Positions 2,281-64,000 of a stretch of DNA of 64,000 nt are shown here, piece after piece. The stretch comes from an uncultured Verrucomicrobiae bacterium (GTDB lineage Bacteria > Verrucomicrobiota > Verrucomicrobiia > Chthoniobacterales > JAFAMB01): positions 864,001-928,000 of the forward strand of contig CAVXLD010000003.1 in assembly GCA_963762565.1 (NCBI GenBank), given 5' to 3'. Both the position numbers and the translations under genes were made by a program. The stretch's first letter is position 1, and the number at the start of each line of letters is the position of its first letter. The notes beneath the pieces were generated by a model that saw only the letters and a program-made list of their open reading frames with translations, made no database searches and had not been told where the DNA came from.

Positions 2281-2307
2281 GCAGCGCGCGGGGACGCGCG
2301 CCCTCCC
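2281..2307. repeat. Solo arm of REPIN-like family J
   Basis: GCAGCGCGCGGGGACGCGCGCCCTCCC is the reverse complement of the left arm at 43772 and 52036. Confidence 0.7.
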
Positions 2308-2322
2308 CACGTCCAATCCCCA

Positions 2323-2685
2323 CTAGCCCCTAACCCCTGCCCTACTGCCTCGATTCGATATCTGCTTTGCCTGTCCGTAGATCGACCGGAACAGAAACGT
2401 GCGTTTGCGGTAGGCGTCAGCCCCTTTGCGCTCGAGAGGTGGCGTCACATCGAAAACGACAAGACTCTCGTCCGGTACACAGAGCTGCATGATCGTATTC
2501 ACGTCCTTCGCTCTAAACGCCGTAATAAACCGATCTTCTAACGCCTTAAGATCGGCGACGTCCTGCGCGCTGGTATGGATGCGTTTCATTTCGATGGGTT
2601 TGGTATCGGCGCGGGTCAGAGACGGATTGATTCCGACCAAGCCGATGGCGAGCAGAATTGGAGCAAGAACCTTCCGTGGGTTCAT
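2323..2685 (-). pseudogene. Truncated secreted SnoaL/NTF2-like protein
   Basis: Signal peptide, then DLKALEDRFITAFRAKDVNTIM...VVFDVTPPLERKGADAYRK; family-like sequence stops about halfway through the domain. Confidence 0.6.
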
Positions 2686-2758
2686 ACTGAGTCTAATAAT
2701 CAACCTTCGCCTCTTAATGCGAATGGTGGTTCCCAAAGGTACCCATTCACGAGCGACT

Positions 2759-2861
2759 GCGGAGCGTGCCACCCTTGCGAGCCTTGGGTGCAGTCGGAAC
2801 CCGTGGAGCGCTTCGCGGGCTCCGACCGCATCGGCCTCGCAAGCGAGGCAGCGCTCCACGG
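2759..2861. repeat. REPIN-like family A element with a degenerate left arm
   Basis: Right arm CGGCCTCGCAAGCGAGGCAGCGCTCCACGG at 2832-2861; partial left arms at about 2761 and 2801. Confidence 0.75.
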
Positions 2862-3043
2862 GCGGCGACCCCTTCGCAGATTCGCCTCTACGCTCGACTC
2901 AACAAGTAATCTGCGTAAATTCTCGCGCTAAAGGATTAAAGCCCAACGCAACGGGAACGTCGAGCTGGCGACCACCGAGCTCCGCCTTGCTTACAAGCTT
3001 GCTCAGGACTCGGGCAGCGAGGAAACTACAAGCGCTTCGAGAA

Positions 3044-3628
3044 ATGAACTGTCCCAACGGTCACCTTAGTACTAGCAACGATTATTGCTCGGTTTGCGGC
3101 GAGAAACTCGACGAACCTATCCCAGGAGTATCGCCCCAATTCGAAACCACGGCTCCAGTGACGCCGGTTGAGTTACCCCCAGACACTCCGCTCGCGACGG
3201 AACCAAATCCTCCAGATCCTTCCTTCGGTGAGTCGACTGGAGCCGCCTGGCGGGTCGAGTGCCGCATTTTCAAAGAAGCCGGTCCGGAAGCCAGTACCCC
3301 TGGCGCTCCTTACGAAAGTTCGACCGAGATAACCCTAAAAACCCAAGTGACCCAAATCGGTCGCTCCAGCCAGAAACGGAATCTTCATCCCGAGATCGCC
3401 TGCGATTGGGATGATGCGGTTTCCCATCGCCACGCCAAGATCGAACTGGATGCCGACGGTAACGCCTTTCTCATGGATGTCGGTTCTAGCAACGGCACAA
3501 TGCTAAACGGTCAACTCATCTCAGCTAATGCCCCAGTTCAACTCAAAGATGGCGACCGCATTTCCATCGGAGGCAGGACGGCGCTGATTGTGCGTGCGCC
3601 AGAAAAAGAAAATCCGCAGATTACATAG
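3044..3628 (+). CDS. Zinc-ribbon plus FHA domain protein
   Basis: MNCPNGH...DYCSVCG, Pro-rich linker, then FHA motifs IGR, VSHRHA, DVGSSNGT, LKDGDRISIG. Confidence 0.88.
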   Translation: MNCPNGHLSTSNDYCSVCGEKLDEPIPGVSPQFETTAPVTPVELPPDTPLATEPNPPDPSFGESTGAAWRVECRIFKEAGPEASTPGAPYESSTEITLKTQVTQIGRSSQKRNLHPEIACDWDDAVSHRHAKIELDADGNAFLMDVGSSNGTMLNGQLISANAPVQLKDGDRISIGGRTALIVRAPEKENPQIT

Positions 3629-3633
3629 ATTAC

Positions 3634-4005
3634 GTGATCCGCCGGGTACGAGCCGCGGCCGCTCAACATGAGCTCTCTTTGACGGAGTACGCTGTGCTAG
3701 CACGGCTAGCCAAAGATGGGCCTGCCACCACGGCGGAGCTGGCCCGCGCAGAAAGTGTGCGACCGCAATCCATGGGCGCCACCATCGTGGCATTGGAAGA
3801 ATTGGCTTTGGTACAACGGAGACCACACCCGACCGACGGCCGCCAGGTAAACATTGAACTGACGGCTAAGGGTGTTGCCGTGCGCAACAGCAGGAAAGTT
3901 GCGAAACAAACCTGGCTCGCTCAAGCCATCGCTCAGCTCGAAGTAGAAGACCAGGAGACCCTATTTAAAGCCGGAGAAATTATCAAACGCCTGGCGCACT
4001 CCTGA
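3634..4005 (+). CDS. MarR family regulator, probably missing its first helix
   Basis: AVLARLAKDGPATTAELARAE...LVQRRPHPTDGRQ; begins abruptly right after a repeat arm at 3612-3633. Confidence 0.8.
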   Translation: MIRRVRAAAAQHELSLTEYAVLARLAKDGPATTAELARAESVRPQSMGATIVALEELALVQRRPHPTDGRQVNIELTAKGVAVRNSRKVAKQTWLAQAIAQLEVEDQETLFKAGEIIKRLAHS

Positions 4006-4042
4006 ACCAGACAATGACACAGATCCACAGTTCAAAATCACT

Positions 4043-4307
4043 ATGAATTGGTTTAACTACATTGCCGCTTTCTTTGCCGGAATCTTTTTCACCAACTTTG
4101 TTCCCCATTTTGTGCGCGGCATATCGGGTGATCGCTTCCCGACCCCATTTGCGAATCCACCGGGAAAAGGCCTGTCATCTCCGATACGAAATGTGGTCTG
4201 GGCGCTGTCTAATTTACTCGTTGGCTATATTCTCTGTCGGCTAGGAAGAGTCGGATACGGCGGCGACTCAGCCCTCATTGCATTCTTTGCGGGTATCGCC
4301 TTGATCA
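4043..4307 (+). pseudogene. Small membrane protein, apparently 3'-truncated and joined to an MFS fragment
   Basis: MNWFNYIAAFFAG...GDRFPTPFANPPGKGLSS...; the frame turns non-protein-like after about codon 89. Confidence 0.55.
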
Positions 4308-4583
4308 GCAGTCGGTATAGTAATGGCGTTCCAGTTTGGACCGCAGATCCTTTTGATGCCGGTTACCGGGTTTGCGGCCGACCATCTGAACCGGCAACGC
4401 CTGTTGCTTGCGACTCAAGCTGCCATGCGTGCTTTGGCCCTCGGACTTGGTCTCCTGACGGTCACCGGCATGGTCCAATTGTGGGAGGTGTACGTTTTCG
4501 CCTTACTACACGGATGCGTTGCCGCGTTCGATGCACCGGCTCGCCAGACCTTTATAACGGCGTCGGTATCTATTACCTGGTAA
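4308..4583 (+). pseudogene. Internal fragment of an MFS transporter
   Basis: AVGIVMAFQFGPQILL...GFAADHLNRQRLL...GCVAAFDAPARQTF; only about 85 aa, in a different frame from the upstream ORF. Confidence 0.75.
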
Positions 4584-4675
4584 GGTATCAGTCCGGTAGC
4601 AGCAAAAACGAACTGTCTTGGCACTCTGGGCAGACAAATATTCAATGAAGCAGTCAGAACCACTCACCTGTTGAC

Positions 4676-4700
4676 TCAGATTATCAGTCTGATAATCTGA
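4676..4700. promoter_or_regulatory. Probable toxin-antitoxin autoregulatory operator
   Basis: Perfect palindrome TCAGATTATCAG-T-CTGATAATCTGA ending 8 bp before the antitoxin ATG. Confidence 0.7.
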
Positions 4701-4708
4701 TTAGAAAC

Positions 4709-4954
4709 ATGGAAACGACGCTCACCACATTTCAGCGGGAATTTGCCAAAGCCCGCAAAGCGGCCGATCGAGGAGAGACAGTGTCGATCAAGGCGGATGA
4801 TAATTCCGAATACATCTTCTTTAAACGCGCCAAGACTCCTGCACACCCATTCGAAGATCTGGAGAATCTCTTTGGTTTAGTATCCCTAAATTCAAAATTA
4901 AGATCGCCACGTGAGAAAATCCGTCGACGCCTCCGCAAGAACGTTGCTGTTTGA
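4709..4954 (+). CDS. Antitoxin, Phd/YefM-like
   Basis: 81 aa, TLTTFQREFAKARKAADRGETVSI; overlaps the PIN toxin gene. Confidence 0.75.
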   Translation: METTLTTFQREFAKARKAADRGETVSIKADDNSEYIFFKRAKTPAHPFEDLENLFGLVSLNSKLRSPREKIRRRLRKNVAV

Positions 4955-5339
4955 TGCGGGGCCGCTTGTCGCAGCTATCGATCGCTCTGACGAACATCAC
5001 GGCTGGGCAAAGCGCATTCTCCCGAAATTGACAGGTAGGGCAATTACTTGCGAGCCTTGTGTCACTGAGGCTTTGCACCTCTTAGAAAATGCTCCGCGCG
5101 CCATTGCAGCACTACGCGGATTTCTAGAGCGGATAGAAATCGTCCCGGTCTTGCCCACGGAATTCACAGACGTCTTCGACCAACTCGAGACTTTCGCGCC
5201 AGCCATGGATCTTGCCGACGGATGTTTGGTGAATCTCCAGCGACGTATTCCCACTTCGATCGTCGTGACAACAGATCATCGCGATTTCGCGACTTACCGG
5301 GTGCCATTCCTGTCTCCGATGGGACTATTCACGGATTAA
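4911..5339 (+). CDS. PIN-domain (VapC-like) toxin; start may be TTG at 4944
   Basis: LFDAGPL, CEPCVTEA, MDLADGCLV, TTDHRDF acidic PIN motifs. Confidence 0.88.
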   Translation: MRKSVDASARTLLFDAGPLVAAIDRSDEHHGWAKRILPKLTGRAITCEPCVTEALHLLENAPRAIAALRGFLERIEIVPVLPTEFTDVFDQLETFAPAMDLADGCLVNLQRRIPTSIVVTTDHRDFATYRVPFLSPMGLFTD

Positions 5340-5348
5340 CGAGCGCGC

Positions 5349-6132
5349 TCATTTAAAAGTCGAAGGCAAAACCGCCTGCGTGGTATTTAGCATAAACCGC
5401 GCTCCCCCGCCGTCTTCCGTGTATGTGGTGCTATTAGGAGGGTAGGTATAGAAGCCAGTCGCGCCGGTGACAAAGCTGCCGGACGTCACCGTTACAAATC
5501 CATACGGATCAGCCGTAATGGCAGACACATTGAGCGGCGGAGAGAAGCCCGGCGTCTGAGTGATTGCAAACCCCTTTTTCGCCACCAAAACTGCGTAAGC
5601 CGTCCTGTTCGTACCGACAAAAAGGTAGTCGCTGTTAGCCGCCATGAAAGTCAGCGCGTTGATTCCACCCTTCAACGGCAAAGTGATCGTGTCCTTCAGT
5701 AGGACGGTGACGTTATCGTTGGTCGAAGAGATCACATCGGTCTTCTTATAGACATAAAGATCAACGCCAGCTGAATTGTTACCACTAGCAACATCCACTA
5801 CATAAAATTGCGCGAGTGACAGTGCTGGTCGTATCGTCGTAGGGTGGACTTCCTTCCAGTAAGGCCCCCACTTTGCCAAAGGGTCCCATGGTGCCGTCGC
5901 CATAACAGCCATCGCTTTCCGTGGTCGACCCGCAAACCAACCAATAAACCGAGGTGTTATTAGAACCCAAGGTATAGGTCGTAAACAGTGTACTGTCGAT
6001 GGGACTACCTTGCGTAGATGTCGCAAAGCACGCTAATGCTAGCCCGGGAAGAAAATAACGCCGCCATTGCGAAAGCGACGAGCGATTTTTTTCTACCGAG
6101 GCAATTAGTTTGAGTGGGATTGGCCGATACAT
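5349..6132 (-). pseudogene. Secreted hypothetical protein split by one frameshift near 5806
   Basis: ORF 6132-5785 (signal peptide ...TVTRAI) continues as YVVDVASG... in ORF 6026-5349 if one T is removed from ATTTTAT. Confidence 0.7.
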
Positions 6133-6444
6133 TTCGCCTCTTTTTCTGACTTATGACCGACGCGAGACTTTCGAGAATTGTGGTTCTAGTCAATTCAAAA
6201 TTTGTTGAAGCCACTTAATATCCTACAAAAGAAGAACTTACAGATTAACTTAGGTCTAACGGCTGTCATCGAGAACGATTTTTTGAAATCGCCTATCAGC
6301 AGTACTGCGCCACCCCCACTGAAAAGCGACGCAAAAAGACTGAAGAGGCGATTGCAAACTGTGACCGTGCGATAAGTCTGGATCCGAGGGACGGCAACGG
6401 CCGACAGCAAACCGCTAACTGCGAACTGCTAACTGTTAACCCGA

Positions 6445-7503
6445 CTACCCTCCCGTGATCTTAACGATTGCCACGGTCCAGTTGTACATTTGGTTGATGT
6501 AAGCGAATTTTCCGTTAGGCGAGATAGCGATAGTCCCAGGCGTCTGGCCAAGCGTGATTGGGCTCCCCACGATCGTATCGGTCGCGGTACTGATCATCAC
6601 GACGGTTTGAGCGTTCTGATTCGGAACATAGAGATAGAGACCATCCGGAGTCATCGCGCTGCCGAACCAGTAATTGCCGTATTCGCTCGTGGTGATCGCT
6701 ATCGTCGTTGTCACCGTGTTGGTCGCAGTGTCGATCACTGATACCGATCCGCTAAACCCGGAAACATACGCTTTTGTACCATCGGGAGTGATGGCGATGT
6801 GGGTCGGATATTCCGCCACCGGGACCGGATTCCCTACGATTAGTTGTGTAGCGACATTGATCTCGTCGACCGTGTTATCGTAATAGTTCACCACGTAGGC
6901 GTTCTTTCCGTCCGCCGTAAACTTGATACAGACTGGACCGTCGCCTGTTTGGATTGGATACGGTGATACCGTGTTTTTCAGGAGATTGATGACGCTGCAG
7001 TCGCCTTCGAATTGGTTGCCCACCCATGCTTGCGTACCAGTAGGATTAATTCCTACACAGTTGGCGTATACCCCCATCCCGGCGATGACTTGTTTCAGGC
7101 TGGGAGTAGTGGATTGGGCGCCGGTAATCACAGAGACTGTTCCGGGCACTCCCCAAATTCCGCCGTTATACCCGTCCACCGGGTTAGCCACCAGAACCTC
7201 CCCTCCTTTCGGTGTGATCGCGAGGAATTGCGCGTTGCCACCGAGCGCGATCGTATTGCTTTCTACCGTTTGGGTGCTTATATCGATCCGGTAGAGCGCG
7301 TCGTAGTTGTTAGAGACGACGTAGACGTATTTATTGTCCGGGGTTACAACCACACCGCTGGGTAGCGGCACCTCTACCGTTTTAAGAATGGTATTGGTAG
7401 GTTGTGCGTGCACAGAATTTGTTACGGCTGCCAGGCATCCGGCGGCCGCCAGGGGCAAAACCCAGCGCAGCAGACTGCGCTGTCGACCATCTTGAGTCTT
7501 CAT
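6445..7503 (-). CDS. Secreted YVTN/YncE-type beta-propeller protein
   Basis: Signal peptide; repeated TPDG-x-x-AYV...VSVIDTATNTV blades. Confidence 0.9.
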   Translation of the reverse strand: MKTQDGRQRSLLRWVLPLAAAGCLAAVTNSVHAQPTNTILKTVEVPLPSGVVVTPDNKYVYVVSNNYDALYRIDISTQTVESNTIALGGNAQFLAITPKGGEVLVANPVDGYNGGIWGVPGTVSVITGAQSTTPSLKQVIAGMGVYANCVGINPTGTQAWVGNQFEGDCSVINLLKNTVSPYPIQTGDGPVCIKFTADGKNAYVVNYYDNTVDEINVATQLIVGNPVPVAEYPTHIAITPDGTKAYVSGFSGSVSVIDTATNTVTTTIAITTSEYGNYWFGSAMTPDGLYLYVPNQNAQTVVMISTATDTIVGSPITLGQTPGTIAISPNGKFAYINQMYNWTVAIVKITGG

Positions 7504-7712
7504 GGAAAGAATAATGGGACCACCACGGAATGATTAGATTCTTTGGCTATCTCTCAGAGATGTAGAAAACCGCCGGGTGTACTTGAATAAGTTCAACTTA
7601 GCGGTGGCGTTCCGGCCCGGCGTTGTGATTCCTGTCCGACAAATCGAACTCCGCACCACCTCTTGCAGCTCAGCCCAACGATCTTGAACGGACAGAGAGG
7701 AAACGAAACCAA

Positions 7713-7801
7713 CACTCCGCTACTCCATCACTCCGCTACTCCATTACTCCACCGCTCATCCCTACTCGAACTCCTGCAACTCCTTGAACTTCTTGAGCTC
7801 C
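7713..7801. repeat. Short tandem tracts of the CACTCC and AACTCC(TGC/TTG) types
   Basis: CACTCCGCTACTCCATCACTCCGCTACTCCATTACTCC and GAACTCCTGCAACTCCTTGAACT; the latter recurs at 23532, 25397, 38826, 43950 and 57497. Confidence 0.7.
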
Positions 7802-7807
7802 TTCCCG

Positions 7808-8131
7808 TCACATCCCGTAAAGTTTCGTCAGAATCGCTTGTAGCTGGACTACGCGAGGTGCGGATAACTTTTGGATGAACGCCCCGAACCTCGCAAGGCT
7901 GACAGCCCTAATCTGATCCGCCATTACTTCAGCTGGTTTGTCGGCACAGACCACCTGCAGGCGGTGAGCCCAGTGAGGGTGCAACTTGCTGGTTAACGGG
8001 CAGACCACGGCCATCGCGGTCTGGTGCATGGCATCCGGACTTACGACGACACAGGGTCGCGTCTTCTGCTGTTCTCGTCCCAAGGTTGGGTCTAATGAAA
8101 CCCAGTAAATTCCATACCGGATAATCCTCAC
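7808..8131 (-). CDS. PemK/MazF family toxin
   Basis: IYWVSLDPTLGREQQKTRPCVVVS...VCPLTS...DQIRAVS; GTG start at 8131 assumed. Confidence 0.9.
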   Translation of the reverse strand: MRIIRYGIYWVSLDPTLGREQQKTRPCVVVSPDAMHQTAMAVVCPLTSKLHPHWAHRLQVVCADKPAEVMADQIRAVSLARFGAFIQKLSAPRVVQLQAILTKLYGM

Positions 8132-8180
8132 GAGAATCCGCCTCCGCAAAGCCTACGGCGCAGCGCGTTCATCGGCCAGA

Positions 8181-8486
8181 TCACGGCCTCGCTGTTTTCC
8201 TCGAACGCCGCGAGACTCCCGCCGACAGGTCGTCATCTTCAAGCCCGTCTGCCAAAGTACCTTGGAGTGATTCGGCTTCGGCTATCGCGTCCGGGTCACT
8301 AGCCATCTCCCGAAAGCTTTCCTCCAGGCTCAGTTTCTCGGACCTGATCGGGCGCAACAAGAGTCCTTCGGCGGTTTCTACCAATTGAACTTCATCCTTG
8401 ATTCCGTAGCGCTTAATGATGCTGCTGGGGATGCGGATACCCCTGGAATTGCCAATCGCTACCATCTTGAGAATCTCGGACGCCAT
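8181..8486 (-). CDS. AbrB/MazE family antitoxin
   Basis: IGNSRGIRIP motif, upstream of the PemK toxin. Confidence 0.9.
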   Translation of the reverse strand: MASEILKMVAIGNSRGIRIPSSIIKRYGIKDEVQLVETAEGLLLRPIRSEKLSLEESFREMASDPDAIAEAESLQGTLADGLEDDDLSAGVSRRSRKTARP

Positions 8487-8664
8487 GTAGGTACCGTAAT
8501 TACGCTGGGTGGAATTGCAAGCCTCTCGATTATCACCACTCCCTCAATCCATCAAGAAAGCCGAACCGCAGGGCGACCTAAGGGCAAGAGGGCACAGTCT
8601 GCTCGTGTAATCCATTGTCCAGAACCGCCCCTCCCGTTCGTCGTGTTTGTAAATCAATTAAGCC

Positions 8665-9348
8665 ATGAAAACCACTGCTCTCCCACCAATCGTGTCCGCA
8701 GAAGAATGGGCTGTTGCCCGGGAAAGACTGCTCGTTAAAGAAAAAGCCGCGACCCGAGCCCACGACGCGCTGGCGGCCGAACGCCGGCGTTTACCGATGG
8801 TCCTGATCGATAAACAATATTTTTTCGAAGGTCCGAACGGGAGAACGAGCCTGGTTGATCTTTTTGACGGGAAACAGCAACTCCTCCTGTATCATTTCAT
8901 GTTTGCTCCCGGGGTCCATGGGTGGCCTGATGCCGGTTGCCCCGGTTGTTCAATGTTTGTCGATCAGGTCGGACACCAAGCGCATTTTCACGCCAGAAAT
9001 GTCAATTTTGTTCTGGTGTCGCACGCACCGCTCCCTCAGCTCCAAGCTTATCAGAAGCGAATGGGGTGGACCCTCCCTTGGTTCTCCTCTTACGGCAGCG
9101 ATTTTAATCGCGATTTCGCTGTCACCACCCCTGAAGGCGAAGGATTCGGCCTCAGTATCTTCCTCAGAGATGAGGAGAACGTCTATCGCACTTATTTTAT
9201 TGACGGGCGTGGCGTTGATGCGCTGGGGAGTGTTTGGAGTTTCCTCGATCTAACCCCCTACGGCCGGCAAGAAACCTGGGAAAATTCCCCAGCCGGCTGG
9301 CCGCAAACTCCGCCCTACACCTGGTGGCGCCGGCACGATGAATACTAA
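8665..9348 (+). CDS. DUF899 thioredoxin-like protein
   Basis: ALAAERRRLPMV, GCPGCS, LDLTPYGRQETWE, WWRRHDEY. Confidence 0.92.
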   Translation: MKTTALPPIVSAEEWAVARERLLVKEKAATRAHDALAAERRRLPMVLIDKQYFFEGPNGRTSLVDLFDGKQQLLLYHFMFAPGVHGWPDAGCPGCSMFVDQVGHQAHFHARNVNFVLVSHAPLPQLQAYQKRMGWTLPWFSSYGSDFNRDFAVTTPEGEGFGLSIFLRDEENVYRTYFIDGRGVDALGSVWSFLDLTPYGRQETWENSPAGWPQTPPYTWWRRHDEY

Positions 9349-9481
9349 CCGCGAATGGACGCGAATTGATTCGAAGAAAGACCTCAACCGCAGCCCCGGA
9401 GAATTTCGGGGCTGCGGTTGAGGTCTTTCTTCGAGTCTTTCGTGTCCATTCGCGGTTTTAGTTTCGCGTCCATTCGCGGTT
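9347..9481. repeat. Nested palindromic element filling the gap between convergent genes
   Basis: Outer AACCGCGAATGGACGCGAA / TTCGCGTCCATTCGCGGTT; inner perfect 28-bp stem 9371-9398 / 9407-9434. Confidence 0.9.
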
Positions 9482-9846
9482 CAGATCCAGACATCGTTCT
9501 GCGCGGTGCGATCGCCGCCGGTGTCGCCGGTGTTAAGGACGCCGCGTGGCTCGATTAGCATGAGCCTTACCTCTTTTGCTGCGTAGGGCTTATGCTCGAC
9601 TCCTTTCGGAACCACGAACAGTTCTCCGGCCCCGATCTGCACTGCGCCGTCCCGGAAATCGATCCGTAAATCGCCCTCCAGCACCAGGAATGTCTCGTCA
9701 GTTTCTTTATGTGAATGCCAGATGAACTCCCCTTCCAGCTTCACAACTTTGAACTGATAGTCGTTCATCTCGGCGATGACTCTGGGCGCCCATTGCTCCG
9801 TCAAAAGCCCAAGTTTTTGCCGAAGATTGATCGATTGATATTTCAT
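9481..9846 (-). CDS. Cupin domain protein
   Basis: FIWHSHKETDETFLVLEG...VVPKGVEHKP. Confidence 0.92.
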   Translation of the reverse strand: MKYQSINLRQKLGLLTEQWAPRVIAEMNDYQFKVVKLEGEFIWHSHKETDETFLVLEGDLRIDFRDGAVQIGAGELFVVPKGVEHKPYAAKEVRLMLIEPRGVLNTGDTGGDRTAQNDVWI

Positions 9847-10008
9847 CGGTTAAAGAAATTGCACCACAAAGTACGAGGCCGGCCAGCGAATGCATCCGCT
9901 TTCGCCAATCCAAAAGCAAACCACCCAACACGCCGAACAGCTTCCTCGGCCAAGCTGCGAATGAGACGTCGAAGCAACACAGATCGAGAGGAACAAAAAC
10001 GTAATCTG

Positions 10009-10198
10009 AACCGCAGATTAACGGAGAAAGACATTAATTATCCGCAGATTTCGCGTTGGGCTTCGGTCGCGCACCGGACCAAGAGTAGCACCCGGACCTG
10101 GAAACGATTTTTCTCTCCTGGTCAGCCTCAACCTGAAAACGAAATCTGCGTAATCTGCGTAATCTGCGGATAAATAAAATCTGTGTTCATCTGCGGTT
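10009..10198. repeat. CGCAGA-unit inverted-repeat element (family D)
   Basis: AACCGCAGAT...ATCCGCAGATT left; AATCTGCGTAATCTGCGTAATCTGCGGAT...ATCTGCGGTT right. Confidence 0.85.
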
Positions 10199-10245
10199 GA
10201 GGGTCCCTATCCGCGGGTAACAGTCTTTCTTCGTGTCCATTCGTA

Positions 10246-10276
10246 GCCCGTCGCGCCGTAGGCTCGGCGAAGGCGG
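10246..10276 (-). mobile_element. 31-bp micro-element inside a CGAATGGA-type arm
   Basis: Reverse complement CCGCCTTCGCCGAGCCTACGGCGCGACGGGC, flanked by A/A. Confidence 0.7.
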
Positions 10277-10353
10277 ATCCACTCGTGGCCAGGATTGATT
10301 GATCCGTATTCCATCGGATAGGATCGCCCGCCTTAAACACAGATCGATCCTTT

Positions 10354-11031
10354 ATGATCCGCGGATTCAAAATCTTCGTTCTTATCTTATTACTCTGCGT
10401 ATTAAGCCTGCTGCCGGGAGAGGCGAGCGCAGAGGAAAATGGTCGACAGCACACCGCTGTCCTTCTCCTATCACCCGCCCCGCAGTTAAAATGGGAGACT
10501 TGGAACGAGATGTTACGAGAAACCGGTAAACCGGGCTCAGAGATCGACTGCCGGGTAGGGATGACCGTGAGCCAAGGCCAGGTCCAATCTGCGGCCATGG
10601 TTCAAAGCACTGGGTTCAAATCTGCCGACGGCGAAATCTGCGAGTGGGTACAAAAAACCTGGCATTTCAAACCGGAAGCAAAAGGAACCTTTACGCTGCC
10701 GATAATGTTGCATCTGCCAAAGGCTATACCCGGACCCGATCCGGTCAAATCGGTCGCTTTCTACACTTCGTACCCGCCATTTGCGCCGCAGGTTAGGCAG
10801 CAACTGCAAAAGGAAGCAGACCGTCAAAAACACGAGGTCACTCTGAAAATAGTGGTTACGGTCCAAGTGGATCGCGGCCAAATTCTAGCCTGCACGGCGA
10901 GTACGAAGACCGGCACCTATCTCGACTATGACGTGCCCTTCTGGGTCAAGGAGAAATGGGTATTCAAGAAAGACGCCTCCGGCACCTGGCAAATACCGCT
11001 TACCTTCAAAGTCGAACCCACGGGATCATAA
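10354..11031 (+). CDS. Secreted protein with two TonB-C-terminal-like modules
   Basis: Signal peptide; VQSTGFKSADGEICEWVQKTWHFKP and TKTGTYLDYDVPFWVKEKWVFKK...IPLTF. Confidence 0.6.
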   Translation: MIRGFKIFVLILLLCVLSLLPGEASAEENGRQHTAVLLLSPAPQLKWETWNEMLRETGKPGSEIDCRVGMTVSQGQVQSAAMVQSTGFKSADGEICEWVQKTWHFKPEAKGTFTLPIMLHLPKAIPGPDPVKSVAFYTSYPPFAPQVRQQLQKEADRQKHEVTLKIVVTVQVDRGQILACTASTKTGTYLDYDVPFWVKEKWVFKKDASGTWQIPLTFKVEPTGS

Positions 11032-11064
11032 TTTAGGAGCTAGGAGCTAGTAGCTAGGAGAAAG

Positions 11065-11247
11065 CGTATGGACGTGTGGGCGTATCGGCGTGTCGGCGTT
11101 CAAGGGAATTAAGTCGCATCATATTGGTCGCATCGGTCCCATAAGTCCCATCCATTCGCAGCGAGTATACGCCGCATCCTACTTTGCCGCGTGGATATAC
11201 CGATACGTATTCGCGCCGATACGCCCATACGCCGACACGCCGATACG
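11065..11247. repeat. Inverted-repeat element with (CGTATCGG/CGTGTCGG)n arms
   Basis: GGGCGTATCGGCGTGTCGGCGT versus CGCCGATACGCCCATACGCCGACACGCCGATACG. Confidence 0.8.
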
Positions 11248-11277
11248 TTCGCCCCTGGTCAGCCTCAACCTTAAACC

Positions 11278-11377
11278 GAAATCTGCGTAATCTGCTAATC
11301 TGCGGATAATTAAAGTCTGCGCTCATCGTCCTCCATCCGCCGCTGAGGTCTGCTTCACGATCCCGAATCTGCGGTTC
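11278..11377. repeat. Solo right arm of family D
   Basis: GAAATCTGCGTAATCTGCTAATCTGCGGAT...AATCTGCGGTT. Confidence 0.75.
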
Positions 11378-11421
11378 GGCTTTGTGTTCTCTCAGTCTAT
11401 GTGGTGTAATATCTGTTTGAC

Positions 11422-12111
11422 GTGACTGAAAGCTCAGAGCAGACGGCGGCGCAAGTGCTCGTGATTGATGTTGGCGGGCACAACATAAAGGTTCTTGCTA
11501 CGGGGAAAACTGAATCCCGGAAGCTGGCGTCCGGTCCCAAATTCACGGCCGCACAGATGGTGCACGGAGTGAAGGAGATCACCCGGGACTGGAAGTACGA
11601 CGTGGTCACGATCGGGTTCCCCGCACCGGTGCGTCAGAATCAACCGGTGGAAGAGCCGTTCAATCTCGGGCGTGGCTGGGTTGGATTTGATTACAAAGGT
11701 GCATTCGGACACCCGGTCAAAATGATCAATGACGCCGCCATGCAGGCCTTAGGCTGCTATCAAGGCGGCAAGATGTTGTTCCTTGGACTCGGCACTGGGC
11801 TCGGGTCGAGCATGGTCGTAGAAGGAATTGTGGTGCCAACCGAGCTTTGCCGGCTCCCTTATAAGAGAATGACATTTGAAGACTACGTCGGCACCCGTGG
11901 CTTGGAACGCCTGGGTAAAAAGAAATGGCGCCGTTGTGTAGAAGATGTGGTCGCCCGATTGGTCGCGGCACTCGAACCGGAAGATGTCGCCCTGGGAGGA
12001 GGCAACGTGAAATACCTGAAGGACGTTCCTCCCGGCTGCAGGATCATTGATAACGATAACGCCTTTGCCGGCGGCTTCCGCCTCTGGGATACGCCTGGCA
12101 GGTTCGGGTGA
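11422..12111 (+). CDS. ROK family kinase (polyphosphate glucokinase-like)
   Basis: VIDVGG, INDAAMQALG, FLGLGTGLGS, LGGGN. Confidence 0.88.
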   Translation: MTESSEQTAAQVLVIDVGGHNIKVLATGKTESRKLASGPKFTAAQMVHGVKEITRDWKYDVVTIGFPAPVRQNQPVEEPFNLGRGWVGFDYKGAFGHPVKMINDAAMQALGCYQGGKMLFLGLGTGLGSSMVVEGIVVPTELCRLPYKRMTFEDYVGTRGLERLGKKKWRRCVEDVVARLVAALEPEDVALGGGNVKYLKDVPPGCRIIDNDNAFAGGFRLWDTPGRFG

Positions 12112-51638: not shown

Positions 51639-51649
51639 TAAGAGAAAGA

Positions 51650-56588: not shown

Positions 56589-56677
56589 ATGTAAATGATT
56601 GCGGTCGAAAAACTTATCAGAGAAAGCCGGGAATGGGCCAGCAAAGAATTAACAGAAGAAAACGAAGAACAGAAAAT

Positions 56678-56922
56678 CCCACACAAGGGCACAAAGACAC
56701 TAAGAAACGGAAACTTTAACAAGAGGGCCGCAAAGGTAGCAAAGACCGAGTTTTAGCAGACTCTGATGTGAGGTTAGCCATTCAAAAGCTAGTCCACCCG
56801 TCGCGCCTATTGTGGAAGCCTAACGTGCGAATCCCAAATCACCAATCGTTCATTTCTTTGCGGCCTTTGTGGCCTTCCTGTTAAATTTTCTGTCTCTTAG
56901 TGTCTTTGTGCTTTTGTGTGAG
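56678..56922. repeat. Family I element (CACAAAG arms)
   Basis: CACACAAGGGCACAAAGACACTAAGA...GGCCGCAAAG / CTTTGCGGCC...TCTTAGTGTCTTTGTGCTTTTGTGTG. Confidence 0.85.
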
Positions 56923-56936
56923 ATACGGCAGTTAAA

Positions 56937-57278: not shown

Positions 57279-57287
57279 TGGAGTAGT

Positions 57288-57497
57288 TGGTAGGGCGAGG
57301 CTCCGGAAAGAGCCACGACGGTCGCAGGGTCGAGTGACGCCTCGTCGGTATATTAGGTTCAACTTCTACGCGCGGCCGAGCCGTGGGTTACGCGGGCCCC
57401 CGGCTCGGCAGCGTTCAGGTGTTGCATCCCATATTTTGGCGAAACGCTATCTCGCTCTGCGACTTCTTTCCGACCATTCTGGAGCCTCGCCCTACCA
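57288..57497. repeat. Family B REPIN-like element with GTAG ends
   Basis: TGGTAGGGCGAGGCTCCGGAA / TTCTGGAGCCTCGCCCTACCA. Confidence 0.85.
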
Positions 57498-57526
57498 CTC
57501 CTTGAACTCCTTGATTATATTTCCAC

Positions 57527-58004: not shown

Positions 58005-58270
58005 CACCACAGAGACACAGAGGGATATTCACCACAAAGGCACAAAGGACACAAAGACAGAAAATTTGACAGGAAGGCCGCAAAGGCCACCAAGACGGAT
58101 CCTTATTCAGAAGCAAAGGGAGACAACCAAGGGGAAAAGTGTCAGCGGAGCGTCAAGATTGCTTTTCTTAAACCTTAGTTGCCTTCTCCTCAAAGAAATC
58201 TGGCTTTGCGGCCTTTGTGCCCTTCCTGTGACATTTTCTGTCTTCGCGTGCTTTGTGTCTTTGTGGTGAA
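58005..58270. repeat. Family I element
   Basis: CACCACAAAGGCACAAAGGACACAAAGACAGAAAAT...CAGGAAGG / CCTTCCTG...ATTTTCTGTCTT...CTTTGTGTCTTTGTGGTG. Confidence 0.85.
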
Positions 58271-59260: not shown

Positions 59261-59298
59261 ACGGCACAAAAAGCGCAAAAAAAGGAAGTCGGAATAGC

Positions 59299-59749
59299 CT
59301 AGCAGACTGTTGAAAAACGCATGTCTTCTGGCCTGGAGGGGAGCCGCTTTGGCACGTAACAGAAGATCCCGCGATGTTTGCCTGGACGCGTGCATGACCG
59401 GAAATCTCCTTAAACAGGCGGCTCCCGGGAACGTTTCAACGCGTGTTAGGTTTGTTGGCACGACGCCCGGATGAACAATCTCCGAACGGAACTATGGACG
59501 AAACATTGCGTGCGGTAATTCCCGGGAGCCGCCTGTTTAACACCCTATTTGGCTTTCCTCGCAATGGATAGAATATCACGAGATCTTTAGGCTCGTTCCA
59601 AAGCGGCTCCCCTCCAGGCCAGGCTGCTATTACCTTGTCCCTCCGGGACAGCCAACCGGCGTCTTTTAACAGTTTGCTAGGCTATCATGAGCCGCCGCTT
59701 CGCGGCTAATCTGCGGCTCATTGAAATCGGTTTTTCAACAGTCTGCTAG
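59299..59749. mobile_element. MITE with perfect 20-bp CTAG-bounded terminal inverted repeats
   Basis: CTAGCAGACTGTTGAAAAAC / GTTTTTCAACAGTCTGCTAG; second degenerate right end at 59661-59680. Confidence 0.8.
59328..59622. mobile_element. Family C element, copy 4 (alignable with copy 3 over its full length)
   Basis: CTGGCCTGGAGGGGAGCCGCTTTGG / CCAAAGCGGCTCCCCTCCAGGCCAG. Confidence 0.88.
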
Positions 59750-60041
59750 TGTCCTGTCCCATAAGTAACGTGGCTTTCGTTGCGATCAAAATGGGCCGTC
59801 GGCAAGGCGGTCCGAGCCGGACTGGCGGTAGAGGGCGCATATCTAGATCGATACGTAACCGACGAGCAACGCAGCCGCCGGCCCATTTTCATCGCAACCC
59901 TCCGGGCCGTGGCCAGTTGGCTGTTTTTCTGCGTTGCTCGCTCGACCCGTATGAACCAGATATGGGCGCTTCGCTCGCGCCTTGAAAAACAGCCAACTGA
60001 CCGACGGCGAAAGCCACGTTATTTATGGGACAGGACACTAG
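59746..60041. mobile_element. MITE with 34-bp terminal inverted repeats, ends reminiscent of IS630-family elements
   Basis: CTAGTGTCCTGTCCCATAAGTAACGTGGCTTTCG / CGAAAGCCACGTTATTTATGGGACAGGACACTAG, one mismatch; no transposase ORF. Confidence 0.85.
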
Positions 60042-60054
60042 TTGTCGACGACCC

Positions 60055-60159
60055 TCTGTTTCCTCTGTTACCTCCTGTTTAAAAATCTGTCTTTGTGTCC
60101 TTCGCGACCTTCCTGTTAAATTTTCCATTTTCTTAGTGTCTTTGTGCCTTTGTGTGAGA
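60055..60159. repeat. Solo right arm of family I
   Basis: CTTTGTGTCCTTCGCGACCTTCCTGTTAAATTTT...TCTTAGTGTCTTTGTGCCTTTGTGTGAG matches 56857-56922. Confidence 0.75.
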
Positions 60160-60178
60160 ATCGCTTTCCTTGTTACCC

Positions 60179-61318
60179 CTACCCTTTATCTACCGTGGTG
60201 GTGAGTGCTTGGGTTTGGCCAGTTGAACTGGCGCGGTATGCGGCTTCGATAATGTCGATCACATGTGTCGCGTGTTCAGGGGTGACTAAAGACGGTTTTC
60301 CTTCTGTGACCCAGTCGATTAGCTGCATCACATCTTCGAACACATGCTGCTCGGGAAGGTCACGATGGAATTCGTTGATGTGCGGCAGCAGCCATTGATT
60401 TCCAAGGCTCTGGTCTCCAGACGCGCCGGCAGCTTGGCGAGCGATGTCGGCGCCGGGGTACTGCAGCGGTTCCCCATTGAGTGTCAGTCCAACGATCGAT
60501 CCGCGGGTCCCGAAATAATTTCCGCTAAACCCCTGAGTCACCCTTCCACTGGCGGTACCGTATACAAAAGCAAAAAGGTTCTCCCCAAAGTCTAAGAGCA
60601 TCACCGTGTTATCGTCCGCGTCGCAGGCAACCATCTTGCCGCGGAACTCGCGCTCCTTGATCCGGGTACCGGATAGGGCCGTGACCCGTAACACCGAACC
60701 TAGGATTCCGGTTAAAGCGGTCAGCGAATACACCGTCATATCGTAGAGCGGACCGCCTCCGGGTTTACGAAAATACCAAGACGGATCGATATTCGAGAGA
60801 ACATCGGTACCCTGCCTTTCATGTTCGTCCTCGTGATAAGTCCCAAAGGCTGCGCCACACACTGCCCAGCAAAGCGAGCCGATATCCCCGCGGCCGATCA
60901 TTTCTTTGATCTGCTGATTATGGGGTCGAAGCATCTCTCCCGGTGAAGGCAAAAGGCGGAGATTCCGCTCCCGAGCCAGTCGCGTAAGTTCTTTGGCCTC
61001 AGCTGCGGTAATGGCCATGGTCTTGTTGCAATGAACGTGTTTGGAAGCCGATAGCGCCTGACGAACCTGGTCGAAATGGAAATGGATTGGCGAAGCAATC
61101 GTGACCGCGTCCACCTCGTCACAGGCCAGTAGCTCCTGGTAATCACTGAACCAACGAGCAATCCCAAATTTCTCGGCTGCTGCTCGGGCCCGGTCAGCAA
61201 CCGGATCACAAATCGCCGCTAACGACACCCGCTCAGCCACATCCGGTTGTACCAAGTGGCGCAGCACCCGCAGTGCAATGGTCCCGCCCCCAACGATTCC
61301 TAATCCAATTTTACTCAT
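60179..61318 (-). CDS. Gfo/Idh/MocA family oxidoreductase
   Basis: GIVGGGTIA, VDAVTIASP, HVHCNKTMA, GGGPLYDM. Confidence 0.9.
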   Translation of the reverse strand: MSKIGLGIVGGGTIALRVLRHLVQPDVAERVSLAAICDPVADRARAAAEKFGIARWFSDYQELLACDEVDAVTIASPIHFHFDQVRQALSASKHVHCNKTMAITAAEAKELTRLARERNLRLLPSPGEMLRPHNQQIKEMIGRGDIGSLCWAVCGAAFGTYHEDEHERQGTDVLSNIDPSWYFRKPGGGPLYDMTVYSLTALTGILGSVLRVTALSGTRIKEREFRGKMVACDADDNTVMLLDFGENLFAFVYGTASGRVTQGFSGNYFGTRGSIVGLTLNGEPLQYPGADIARQAAGASGDQSLGNQWLLPHINEFHRDLPEQHVFEDVMQLIDWVTEGKPSLVTPEHATHVIDIIEAAYRASSTGQTQALTTTVDKG

Positions 61319-62584
61319 GTTGTCGGATTACTTAGACGGATTTTTGAGCACAAACGAACGAAGGAAACGAAGAGCGGATCTGGTTTAGTTCTTCGAAAGA
61401 AGCAGAATCATCTTACAGTTCCCGCGATAGCAATGAAAACCTTTGGCACGCCCAACCAGTTAACCGGCTAGGGAACGTCGGCAACAACACCCCTGAACTC
61501 GATCAGCTCGCAGTTCTGGCGCAACCACCCCCGGATTGTTCCAGGAATGATAGGCCAGCAATCAGACTGACCACTTTCTTTATTCAGCCAGTCTTTTTTC
61601 GCGCCGTCATCCGAATGCCACTCTTCCGGTGAGAACTCCGATGGCTGAACCGTCCCGGTGAATCCATCTAAAGGCAAAAAACATAGGACTGCGCTTGTTT
61701 CAAAGCCTGCTCTTGAACAGGATTCGGGCCCAAACTAACGCCTTAGCTCAGGAGTTAGATGCCGCCCCTTGATGTCAATGAACGCCCCCCAAACCTCCTA
61801 TAACCCCGGGAAAAAGCATACAAACGTGGAATCAGCTTGTATTCTTATAGCTTTGAGAGCTATGACATTTCTAGAGAGTCCGGAAACTCGCGTCGTTTTG
61901 GCGGTTAAATCTCGACGATGGCCCAGATAATCACACCCCAAGAGTTTGAAAGACGGCTCGCCACTGGCGAGAGCTTCTTCGATAGCGTTAGCGCCAAATA
62001 TATTCTCAGGATGCCGGGGAGCAGAGTACATCACCCAGGGAAGATGAGAAGCCGCCTCAAGACGAGAGCGATTCGGCGCCGGTCGAAGAAGCAGCTCTAG
62101 AATGCTTTTAGCATTGCTAAGCATTTGCCTTCAAATTCGGGGCCTGACTGCTAACGCCTTTGATCTCAACGGCGAGCACTCACAATCATTGCGGCTTCAT
62201 CGGGCATCGCGTCCGCCGGAGTAGACCGTACGGTCGGGCCCGCTGCGGATATGTATCCTGCGGCGGCGATCACCAAGTTATATTCCAATGGTTTGAATCA
62301 ATCCGATCCGAATCTTCATAGTTTCTAAGGGAGCGCAGCAGCAACTAGAGCACCAAGAACTTTGATTTCGCCGTCACTGCAGATCGGCCTTGAAAGAGGC
62401 TTCGGTTGGCCGTTAAGGGATGCCGCTAGCGGCGCGTAGTCTCAGCGCGAAGATCGACTCGGTGATCTCGGAGTGTAGTGGTTTTGCCCGACCACAACCA
62501 GGCAAAAGTTAAACAATGCAAGTTCTTAAGAACAAAACTCCAAAAGTTTTAGCCTCACCGGTCTTTAGTAGATTGAACGGGGCC

Positions 62585-63334
62585 ATGAAACCATCCCAGG
62601 CACCGTCTTCGGACTCCTACCCCGTCGAAGAAGATTCCTTCGAAAAACATTGGGCTCAGAACCGCGGTTCCCCTGGTTGGTATTGCCTGCGTTCAGCACG
62701 AAAACAGGAGTTCATAGCAGCGGCCCATTTGAAGGCTTTACCAAATGTACAAGTCTTCTGCCCGAGAATTCAATTCCGGCGGCGCTCGAACGTCTCTGGG
62801 AAAAGTATGCTGTTCGCCGAGGCGTTATTCCCTGGACATTTTTTTGCACGCTTTCCTACAACCGAAATATTGGCGGCAGTTGAGCAGCTATCTGGTGTTC
62901 GGGGTGTCGTGTGCTTCACTGGAAAGCATGCAGTGATGGAGGAAAAGGTGATCGCGGCGCTGCGTGTAGAAACGAAGGCAATCATGAACGGGCTTGCCGC
63001 AGGGGACCGCTTGCGTTTAACCAACTGCGGAGTCTCCAGGCTCGAGGCCGTCATAACACACATATTATCGGCTGACGAACGGGTGCAGACCCTTTTGGAT
63101 TTCCTCCAGTCCGAAACGAGTACGCAAGAGTCCTTAAAAAATGCGTCGATGAGCCGGCCGGGACTGACCATCCTTCGCTTTTCGACTCGATTCAGGTTGA
63201 TTAGCTCAAATGGTGCTTTCAATCCGTCCGCGTCTAAACTAGCGGAACTCGCAGAACCCAATTTGCCGGCAAACGACCGCGATCTATCAAAAGGCTTGCC
63301 ATTCTCGACCTCGTATCGGCAGGCAATCGCCTAG
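62585..63334 (+). CDS. NusG-paralog transcription antiterminator (RfaH/UpxY-like); start uncertain
   Basis: WYCLRS.RKQEFIAAAHL...VFCPRI...EALFPGHFFARF...GVRGVV NGN domain; degenerate KOW (AGDRLRL...ERVQTLLDFL). Confidence 0.75.
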   Translation: MKPSQAPSSDSYPVEEDSFEKHWAQNRGSPGWYCLRSARKQEFIAAAHLKALPNVQVFCPRIQFRRRSNVSGKSMLFAEALFPGHFFARFPTTEILAAVEQLSGVRGVVCFTGKHAVMEEKVIAALRVETKAIMNGLAAGDRLRLTNCGVSRLEAVITHILSADERVQTLLDFLQSETSTQESLKNASMSRPGLTILRFSTRFRLISSNGAFNPSASKLAELAEPNLPANDRDLSKGLPFSTSYRQAIA

Positions 63335-63489
63335 CCATCCCCAACGCGTGTCCGTGCTTCCGTGGGGGTTAGCAAGCCGGTAGGTTCCGCAACGATTCCT
63401 AGTCCGATTTTACTCATGTTACGCCCAAAGGCAGAATTATTTCACCACAAAGACACAAAGGACACGAAGACAGATTTCGTGTTTTTCTG

Positions 63490-64000
63490 TTAAATTTCCG
63501 GTTCCCGTTGTGAGCTTGTGCAAACCATCTCGAGCCTCTCGGTAATCATCCTTGAGATCCGGCCTGCCGCCGGAGGATCGAGGTTTGCTAGTACGACGAC
63601 CAGATAGCCGATATCCGGAAACATCTCGAAGATACCATTCATCCCAATCGCGCCACCGCTGTGACCGACACCCCGCAGACCGTTCACCGTTCGAGTTTCA
63701 AAGCCGTATCCATAGTGACTACCATGGTCCGTCTCGACCCTTCCAGCCGTGACCAATTCGGTGTAGTGAGCATTCAGCAGTCTCTTGGCCTGTAAAGCGA
63801 TGGCGAAACTCAAAAGGTCATGAACCGTTGAATAACCGCAGCCTGCTGAACTGCCGCGAAAGGGCAAGCTAGTGGTATTCGGACGCGGGTACGGCAAGGG
63901 AACTATATTAGAGCTCACCATCGTCCCAGCTGCACAGGTGTAACCGACGCTGCGATCAGGCACGAACTGATCTTCCGGCTCGGAACCGCTAGACCGCATC
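63490..64000 (-). CDS. Serine hydrolase/beta-lactamase family, C-terminal part; 5' end off the window
   Basis: GSSAGCGYSTVHDL, YGYGF, GHSGG, VVVLAN. Confidence 0.88.
   Translation of the reverse strand, partial: MRSSGSEPEDQFVPDRSVGYTCAAGTMVSSNIVPLPYPRPNTTSLPFRGSSAGCGYSTVHDLLSFAIALQAKRLLNAHYTELVTAGRVETDHGSHYGYGFETRTVNGLRGVGHSGGAIGMNGIFEMFPDIGYLVVVLANLDPPAAGRISRMITERLEMVCTSSQREPEI

Follow-up and report, generated by a model that had tools for sequence, protein, structure and literature searches.

The intergenic DNA of an uncultured Verrucomicrobiae bacterium is, over one 64,000-nucleotide stretch of its genome, crowded with palindromic repeats that often enclose one another, which raises the question of what these repeats are, what moved them and how their nested arrangement came about. 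The whole stretch, here called the window, covers positions 864001-928000 of contig C3 of genome G000, a 6.12-Mb assembly of 15 contigs with 54% G+C and a completeness of 93.7%. Its genes are ordinary, encoding CO-dehydrogenase subunits, sugar kinases, ABC transporters and regulators. No transposase gene was found in the window among open reading frames (ORFs) and Pfam matches, and an Rfam scan found no rRNA gene in it. Using an inverted-repeat scan, 76 inverted pairs spaced at most 500 nucleotides (nt) apart were detected, and BLAST of the window against its own 6.12-Mb genome returned 64 segments with at least five additional genome copies. We delimited the gaps between genes by ORFs and Pfam matches, counted gaps of at least 60 nt and scored a gap as occupied if it held at least 25 nt of a repeat with five or more copies. 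By this measure 32 of 47 gaps bear repeats, which make up 6,701 of 18,044 gap nucleotides (37%) and 6,876 nt (10.7%) of the whole window. An earlier note on this DNA had spoken of more than 35 elements or solo arms in about ten families, and both figures are right according to our profile-based census of the window: 14 A arms, two B pairs, four C pairs, three J hits, one M pair, one R5 pair, two pairs and one solo arm of family I, and 69 short-period arrays. The repeats are gene-less forms of hairpin cassettes with a cargo at the tip, the cargo being a gene of the RAYT (tyrosine transposase linked to repetitive extragenic palindromes, REPs) or IS200-like type, a GxxExxY gene or a four-helix-bundle gene; their anatomy, copy statistics, master copies and nesting order are matters of observation. 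Taken as a whole, we consider it probable that two kinds of hairpin cassette have filled the intergenic DNA with derivatives that lack a gene, and that in both kinds the hairpin tip acts as cargo slot and as landing place.

The first kind comprises arm families that resemble REP doublets forming hairpins (REPINs). A nhmmer search found 573 A arms genome-wide, and the corresponding numbers are 478 for B, 381 for C, 120 for M and 29 for R5. Neighbouring A arms within 1 kb are arranged head-outward ('+-') in 124 cases, head-inward ('-+') in only four and head-to-tail in 139, the last mostly with a unit of about 42 nt. The same polarity prevails for B (181 head-outward vs 12 head-inward neighbour pairs), C (166 vs 11) and M (43 vs 1). 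The A arm reads CGTGGAGCG followed by a hairpin with a 7-bp stem and is near-invariant across 257 arms, while B and C arms have the heads TGGTGGGGCGAGG and CTGGAGGGGAGCC, respectively. Arm spacing is discrete, with classes of 120-130 nt and near 170-190 nt for A, about 160 and 240 nt for B, about 173 and 240 nt for C, and 211 and 228 nt for M. Alignments further reveal a layered plan in which the outer arm is followed by more conserved blocks, each mirrored on the opposite side, with fixed-length filler between them, giving units of about 190-290 bp. Two families named in the earlier note stand apart. The 246 genome-wide hits of J are not arranged as inverted arms, so that J does not hold as a palindromic-arm family, and family I, with 10 arm hits genome-wide, is too small for its interiors to be judged. 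The 26-nt A arm, allowing at most one mismatch, occurs 221 times here and 167 times in the congener G004, and was found in none of 119 other genomes sampled from the order; a reversed control gave 0.

The interiors were said to be unalignable within families. This is true by eye, and it is also true of D and similar word-armed elements treated below. In case of A and B it fails statistically, as interiors are homologous and fixed in length: mean pairwise identity in global alignment is 0.579 for A (shuffled 0.497) and 0.572 for B (shuffled 0.507). C interiors reach 0.62-0.64 (shuffled 0.508) and M interiors 0.736, and the nearest copies are 0.72-0.78 identical in C, 0.67-0.68 in A and B and 0.98 among the 34 copies of M. 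Genome-wide alignment of interiors, as expected of ordinary miniature inverted-repeat transposable elements (MITEs), thus lies in between, being clear for M, moderate for C and weak for A and B. The discrepancy between arm and interior is greatest in A, where arms are 92.6% pairwise identical and interiors 48% (multiple alignment) to 58% (pairwise); the median identity of nearest A interiors is 0.64-0.68, and just one pair is alike (0.89). The A interior is not a palindrome of its own, since its left half matched the reversed right half of the same element no better (0.572) than that of other elements (0.582; shuffled 0.532). When the genome was searched with an interior-only model of the A core, 120 hits had both arms, 12 had one and none was without an arm (both strands of the palindromic model counted). 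A arms and A core therefore belong together, and the idea that arms were added in pairs around local DNA fails for this family.

Copies that still enclose a gene identify the likely source of the REPIN-type families. Twelve Pfam Y1_Tnp matches and 12 matches to the NCBIfam RAYT model (REP_Tyr_transpos, cut-off 80 bits) were found in the genome. C arms flank a 153-aa RAYT at C1:579662-580374 (89-89.4 bits) and B arms flank a RAYT at C10:17251-18012 (84.1 bits). The latter locus is laid out as arm, 62-nt filler, GCCGAGCCG, gene, CGGCTCGGC, 62-nt filler and arm, and the B master therefore corresponds to a B repeat that carries a gene in its middle. The gene between R5 arms (L005) is an IS200-like Y1 gene and not a RAYT, four related IS200-like genes (L001-L004) have flanking hairpin modules of their own with 6-52 copies, and an additional RAYT-like gene on C7 has other GTAG-type flanks. 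In case of family A, no convincing arm pair enclosing a gene was found in this genome, and the A-type RAYT lacks an orthologue in this assembly, its best match being the C-family RAYT at 55% identity. In the congener G004, two A arms that face outward at a distance of 684 nt enclose a 146-aa RAYT (86.4 bits). A copy with 87% identity occurs in G003 and has one A arm upstream of it, on a contig that ends before the other side; G002 and G005 hold no close copy. None of 30 Y1 loci found through Pfam in relatives had A arms, and the A-type RAYT surfaced only with the NCBIfam RAYT model. By profile score and by the H-x-H strings PDHIHAF, PDHLHLF and PDHVHLF in their translations, the masters of A, B and C belong to the RAYT family, with a predicted catalytic role. 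The REP/RAYT connection drawn in the earlier note, from the resemblance of heads, is thereby borne out for B and C in this genome and for A in G004, with one arm upstream in G003. A 348-aa protein combining Y1 and DnaA-C-like parts was considered as the A enzyme and treated as a coincidence, because its homologues in other genomes have no A arm nearby. Such proteins of about 350 aa have four paralogues here, one of which (L006, C1:531665-532711) is directly followed by 6-7 tandem A arms.

The second kind of hairpin has arms built of short tandem words. Tandem Repeats Finder returned 4,111 non-overlapping arrays of period 6-12 genome-wide, period 7 being the most frequent. Of neighbouring arrays that have the same word and are at most 1.5 kb apart, 350 are in inverted and 37 in direct orientation, with one polarity per word. 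Copies of a word arm have a common 26-33-nt string with an identical order of word variants, which argues that these arms are not mere products of slippage. Their cores are alike only at the shuffled level (e.g. 0.424 vs 0.414 between AGGAGCT arms and 0.378 vs 0.373 between GGTGATT arms), and core length is nonetheless narrow in several families, at 86-94 nt in 13 of 18 pairs with CGCAGATTA words and 31-43 or 31-38 nt in two heptamer families. Core centres are weakly self-complementary (0.50-0.56 vs 0.48-0.52 shuffled). The genome contains 10 intact GxxExxY (PF13366) genes plus one broken copy and seven four-helix-bundle (PF05635) genes, and all 17 examined genes of these two classes lie between inverted word arms of 24-160 nt that are 77-100% complementary and 439-802 nt apart. 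The arms around GxxExxY genes consist of 8-10-nt words, including the D, CGCAAAG and CACAAAG types of the window, and those around all seven four-helix-bundle genes consist of 6-7-nt words, including the GTCCTCG and GGTGATT types of the window. A tblastn search of the window for both gene classes and their remnants gave one hit, an M-repeat artefact, and the word arms in the window are gene-less. At C10:371469-371676 a core of 160 nt, flanked by inverted word arrays, still holds a 47-aa remnant of a GxxExxY gene, a cassette caught losing its gene. Together with the B repeat, which equals its master minus the gene, these loci substantiate the suggestion of emptied cassettes. As the cores of the word-arm families are unrelated, arm addition around local DNA might apply to these. 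A cyanobacterial origin, hinted at by the heptamers, was discarded with a HIP1-type octamer occurring just 463 times in the genome. One four-helix-bundle gene, at C3:44245-44911, seems to be interrupted by an M element: the Pfam match is confined to positions 2-78, the rest of the protein matches about 215 nt further along, and dozens of M copies are hit by the read-through frame.

We confirmed all six nestings that had been named for the window. A arms (24968-25001 and 25310-25342) stand directly around a B element (25005-25299) at 24968-25342 (inverted-repeat scan and census). GGAGTT word arms (23296-23320 and 23532-23564) surround an A element (23331-23525) at 23296-23564 (inverted-repeat scan), and the same type of arm surrounds a J-type hairpin element at 43752-43986 (census). 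At 32904-33313 (census), AGGAGCT heptamer arms are followed by GTCCTCG (K) arms and then by a core with one A-like arm (33190-33217). CGCAAA arms enclose a D-type word-arm hairpin (15375-15520) at 15344-15580, and an outer inverted repeat encloses a C-family REPIN (59330-59620) at 59294-59685 (inverted-repeat scan). Genome-wide, the families A, B, C, M and R5 yield 515 arm pairs, of which 12 are nested, none is staggered and two lie side by side within 100 nt. The order is never reversed, with A outside B or C and B outside C (five, three and four cases). Eight of the 12 nested pairs are centred within 6 nt, compared with 4.83 expected given the room between the outer arms (P = 0.0067), including three A-around-B cases that are trivially centred, as B fills the space. 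The claim that independent random insertion does not account for this arrangement is well founded: the nesting is non-random. Further, 12 of 119 A pairs, 20 of 175 B pairs and 13 of 165 C pairs are flanked by word arrays left and right, and only four, eight and two pairs, respectively, contain word arrays. Word shells recur in a single order: GGTGATT, AATCAGT or AAGCAGT, AGGAGCT, GTCCTCG and finally core or REPIN. At C3:125735-126188 an M element lies inside CGCAAAG arms. A count of same-word nesting under a strict definition gave 12 cases, the definition being too strict for use. In about 20 A elements of greater length, 50-90 additional, unrelated nt are located at model positions 98-124 of 223.

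These observations can be joined in one scheme. Doublets of A, B, C and R5 consist of two outward-facing REP modules, each with a GTGG/GGAG-type head, a conserved stem block, fixed-length filler and an inner block. Each REPIN family has, or had, one master whose hairpin tip is occupied by a Y1 (HUH) transposase gene of the RAYT or IS200-like type, and the Y1 enzymes may mobilise the gene-less A, B, C and R5 copies through single-stranded DNA, leaving no target duplication. Flanking direct repeats of at least 5 nt were not above the control level of 4.9-5.9% in any family (A 7/96, B 5/163, C 6/163, M 2/34; 2-4 nt lie below resolution), and single-strand movement by Y1 enzymes fits this result. 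The word-armed hairpins (D, CGCAAAG, I, AGGAGCT heptamer, K and GGAGTT types) are likewise gene-less cassettes, the full forms of which have at the hairpin tip a GxxExxY nuclease-like gene or a four-helix-bundle gene of the type found in 23S rRNA intervening sequences (IVS). In both kinds the hairpin tip is presumably cargo slot and preferred landing place, so that younger elements would end up centred inside older ones and shells would form with word arms outside A, A outside B and B outside C. Insertion at the tip is favoured by the lack of staggered pairs, by the younger-looking interiors of C, the innermost family, by the M copy inside word arms and by the position of the masters' genes at the tip. 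The arms would be conserved as recognition modules while interiors drift at fixed length. After copying, arms should decay as interiors do, yet they do not, which means that an additional constraint in place or exchange from arm to arm must act, the cause probably being one of these.

Several findings weigh against this scheme. The 573 A arms are 92.6% alike with no RAYT of their own in the assembly and enclose interiors that are 48-58% alike, whereas copying followed by decay predicts equal decay of both. The A core is wholly missing where A surrounds B; this would call for nearly empty A doublets, just three of which exist (spacing 2-12 nt). Of six A-B sites, three have a junction on one side only, which fits arm addition equally well. 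Cores of word arms stand at the shuffled level and are, in several families, narrow in length, and an origin by deletion does not predict the latter. The 30 nt outside the arms of M are at least 70% self-complementary in none of 37 cases; with no outer palindrome at its flanks, M, the youngest family, does not seek hairpin centres. Finally, no transposition event has been observed.

The strongest competitor of our scheme is growth from the inside out, in which single arms are mobile and insert beside existing heads, so that the outermost shell is the youngest and the interior is partly local DNA. As the ends of a hairpin element mirror each other, arms would accumulate on either side of it. 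Single-arm mobility would suit the 178 of 573 A arms that stand in head-to-tail arrays of period ~42. At all nine junctions where A and B abut, A is the outer element and its polarity is the same, and the 6-12-nt spacers differ in sequence (a tenth adjacency with another arrangement was left out of the count), and the B interiors of four A-B composites are mutually unrelated (0.42-0.54), so these composites are separate events; this repeated outcome and the one-sided sites mentioned above are what outside addition would give. The shuffled-level cores of the word arms also point in this direction, as does the gap at 14797-15620, which has one CGCAAA-type arm in G003, none in G004, and an arm, D and an inverted arm here. 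Further, in 12 of 109 A elements, 14 of 172 B elements and 14 of 164 C elements (8-11%), self-complementarity of the 30 nt just beyond the arms reaches 70% or more, compared with 0-2% in cross-element controls. On the other hand, outside addition does not explain why the A core never occurs without an A arm or why B and C repeats are their masters minus the gene. Outer A interiors are not younger than inner C interiors, and the two word arms of an element resemble each other no more than arms from separate elements do, with uncorrelated array lengths on the two sides. The latter result gives no sign of mirror copying, and mirror copying by template switching was rejected as the source of the symmetric shells on the same grounds. 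Like the scheme above, it also fails to explain the conservation of the arms. We regard inside-out growth as unlikely, if the most serious of the alternatives.

A more speculative thought is that the hairpin tip serves as a cargo slot in general and that the arms are recombination sites, more than transposon ends, at which Y1 enzymes, or another activity in case of word arms, cut at the heads, swap interiors like cassettes and homogenise the arms. If true, this would cover much at once: why arms are ~93% alike when the interiors, of fixed length, are near random, why A arms stand directly around unrelated B elements at sites independent of one another, why the concentric order is strict, and why three gene classes with no relationship to each other (RAYT, GxxExxY nuclease and four-helix bundle) have one packaging plan. 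We hold it to be doubtful, somewhat more so than inside-out growth.

Comparison with relatives bears on the scheme of tip-loaded cassettes and on a further alternative, namely that the hairpins are useful to the host. The relatives have ~80% gene identity, and a metagenome search for near-identical strains gave at most 85% protein identity. In the gap after a gene encoding BNR repeats, where A surrounds B here, L030 has a plain A element with the same arm flanks, L033-L036 have K words and B, and L025, L029, L031 and L037 have other word arms; GTCCTCG-type arrays are found in G005 and G002 and stacked word arrays in G004. Overall, 12 of 14 relatives hold a hairpin or word-array element in this gap, and the other two (G003 and L026) hold apparent small toxin-antitoxin genes. 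A downstream anchor, TGTCACGAAACG (25350-25465), located upstream of a sigma-factor gene, varies only slightly among the relatives read and may be a regulatory site, and all sequence between it and the preceding gene has been replaced among relatives. The gap before the same gene (23206-23735) has an A element here and in G004, with interiors unalignable by eye, and an msrB-like gene (read by eye) with B or C elements in G002, G003 and G005 (L014, L016 and L017), bracketed in G003 by other inverted word arrays. The outer motif of 59294-59685 also precedes a C element in the congener G002. Gene order is only partly kept between positions 1-16000 of the window and four congeners. Since orthologous gaps hold differing elements in relatives, the same sites have been refilled repeatedly. 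If the elements served, for instance, to terminate transcription, to stabilise mRNA or to bind proteins, in-place selection would keep the arms and leave the interiors free, and mobility would merely supply the elements. Such use would explain why arms are far better conserved than interiors, why gaps with a gene 3' end are occupied in 28 of 37 cases and divergent gaps in 4 of 10, and why some element fills the gap after the BNR-repeat gene in most relatives; REPs are credited with such roles in the background given by PMC3733652. It leaves the fixed nesting order unexplained, sits poorly with hundreds of copies per family and dedicated transposase masters, and is at odds with insertions that change coding ends (24968-25004 and 39967-40273). 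As the whole explanation, host use is improbable, a little more so than arm recombination. Ordinary cut-and-paste (DDE) MITEs piling up at random would suit the limited intergenic space and the young, MITE-like M family with its 34 copies of 0.98 nearest-copy identity, but they are very improbable in view of masters that carry Y1 and not DDE genes, the absence of long target duplications in every family, 12 nested vs 0 staggered pairs in fixed order and centring beyond what the available room allows.

The remaining elements of the window belong to the same families, and several adjoin or enter genes. Family A is also represented by a canonical element at 43180-43373 (inverted-repeat scan) and by a single arm (2829-2862, minus strand) at 2795-2885, which folds onto a short sequence repeating its head in inverted orientation (DNA fold, -31.6 kcal/mol). 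At 39967-40273 one forward A arm faces five tandem reverse A arms of period 42 (inverted-repeat scan). A 782-aa open frame (38853-41201) runs through this region, the period corresponding to 14 codons. Only residues 13-306 of the frame form an ADP-ribosylglycohydrolase domain, and the array may have fused frames or lengthened the protein. Likewise, the left A arm at 24968-25004 provides the final dozen codons and the stop of the BNR-repeat gene, which ends in another, conserved tail in relatives. A B-family REPIN (arms 57287-57311 and 57472-57497) was found at 57283-57514 by census. C-family REPINs are located at 13274-13639 (arms 13336-13360 and 13599-13623) and 26457-26781 (arms 26473-26497 and 26715-26739; both inverted-repeat scan and census) and at 45675-45965 (census), the last being 80% identical to 59321-59615. 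The M element of the window lies at 59746-60041 (inverted-repeat scan) and belongs to the young family with a nearest-copy interior identity of 0.98. The R5 REPIN at 28099-28320 (inverted-repeat scan) has as its arms the module that flanks the IS200-like Y1 gene of L005, and a fragment of the REP module flanking the IS200-like genes of L001-L003 lies at 28011-28045. The Rfam family Acido-Lenti-1 (RF01687, listed as a small RNA, sRNA) matches the window at 28098-28143, L004 at 1368-1412 and L005 at 1984-2029, with scores of 41.2, 41.8 and 38.3 bits (threshold 37), that is, the left arm of the R5 doublet in the window and the modules flanking two IS200-like Y1 genes. This 'sRNA' may therefore be a transposon-end or REP module.

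Among the word-armed elements, D-type hairpins are positioned between DeoR and PfkB genes (30598-30899), between a LacI gene and a transporter binding-protein gene (34763-34948) and within an ABC-transporter operon (36270-36526), all three by inverted-repeat scan and census. D-type solo arms at 10111-10198, with CGCAGATTA words, and 11258-11321 and D-type arrays in inverted orientation at 19216-19487 were seen by BLAST copies and census. Hairpins with arms of CGCAAAG words are found at 47946-48196 (census), at 49907-50168 (CGCAAAG-type words, related to 47955-48159; census) and at 51642-51957 (31-nt arms, 100% complementary; inverted-repeat scan and census). Family I contributes hairpins at 56676-56924, with 70-nt arms of CACAAAG-type words, and 58028-58270 (inverted-repeat scan and census), a solo arm at 60053-60159 (census) and an I-type solo word arm at 63439-63474 (BLAST copies). 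J-type sequences occur as a solo GC-rich hairpin on the minus strand at 2279-2307 (nhmmer census) and as an element at 51991-52205 that is 79% identical to 43772-43911 (BLAST copies and census). A 112-nt palindrome at 9347-9457, 87.5% complementary, stands between convergent genes and has up to 41 copies (inverted-repeat scan and BLAST). AACTCC-type word arrays at 7709-7803 (BLAST copies and census) adjoin a MazF/MazE toxin-antitoxin pair at 7808-8486. A conserved unannotated stretch at 14940-15200, kept in G003 and G004, may be a small minus-strand gene. Contigs of four public runs covering 22700-37000 are short and break at repeats, with almost no element bridged.

REPINs have usually been studied as one to three small families in proteobacteria. 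In Bertels and Rainey (PMC3116915), REPINs are defined and tied to RAYTs, and REPINs inserted in or beside REPINs are mentioned for five regions. The REP/REPIN-RAYT systems of Pseudomonas fluorescens SBW25 and E. coli (PMC3116915, PMC3733652) have in common with the elements of the window the short hairpin modules with a GTAG/GTGG-type head, head-outward doublets of fixed spacing, hundreds of extragenic copies, one RAYT gene flanked by the same modules, and tandem arrays. In contrast to known REPINs, the units described here are larger and layered, and their host belongs to the Verrucomicrobiota. A link to Y1 genes exists for at least four families (in the genome for B, C and R5, only in congeners for A), and additional RAYT-like and IS200-like Y1 genes are accompanied by their own REP modules. 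In the largest family, for which the assembly contains no RAYT, interiors near saturation are combined with arms that are 93% alike, and the concentric nesting is regular and of fixed order. The word-armed cassettes recall the 23S IVS of Coxiella burnetii, for which Warrier et al. (PMC4990558) describe a terminal stem of 28 bp, an ORF for the four-helix-bundle protein S23p and, next to this ORF, three heptamers in tandem; the plan of an inverted-repeat stem around a PF05635 gene with tandem heptamers matches that of the seven PF05635 genes between inverted 6-7-nt word arrays. Unlike this IVS, the elements reported here lie between protein genes, have GxxExxY with 8-10-nt words as a second cargo and are mostly gene-less. 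Bacterial interspersed mosaic elements (BIMEs) and classical MITEs are likewise composites of short palindromic modules or non-autonomous derivatives of a gene-bearing master. Here, however, shells are concentric and not alternating linear mosaics, target duplications of at least 5 nt do not exceed the control, and no DDE transposase was linked to the elements, none having been sought. Integron attC sites have conserved outer inverted arms around a centre variable in sequence and length and are acted on as a folded single strand. The present elements have neither integrase nor cassette array, and their centres are weakly self-complementary, so the likeness is one of resemblance only.

In the open-access literature searched, we found no description of GxxExxY genes in word-armed hairpins, nothing on repeats of this kind in Verrucomicrobia beyond PMC3733652, and nothing on the small dispersed repeats of Nostoc beyond the REPIN paper. 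What is known are REP/REPIN/RAYT systems and IVS-like cassettes; what is new are unusually large, layered, multi-family REPINs together with word-armed cassettes in concentric, fixed order. By remodelling gene ends and operon junctions, these elements bear on annotation and regulation in uncultured soil Verrucomicrobiota. With several large layered families in one genome, one of them lacking a transposase in the assembly while its arms are near uniform, the genus offers a test bed for the persistence or death of REPINs once their RAYT is gone, for hairpin tips as insertion hot spots of single-strand transposases, and for the role of the very widespread GxxExxY and four-helix-bundle mini-genes with repeated-word arms.

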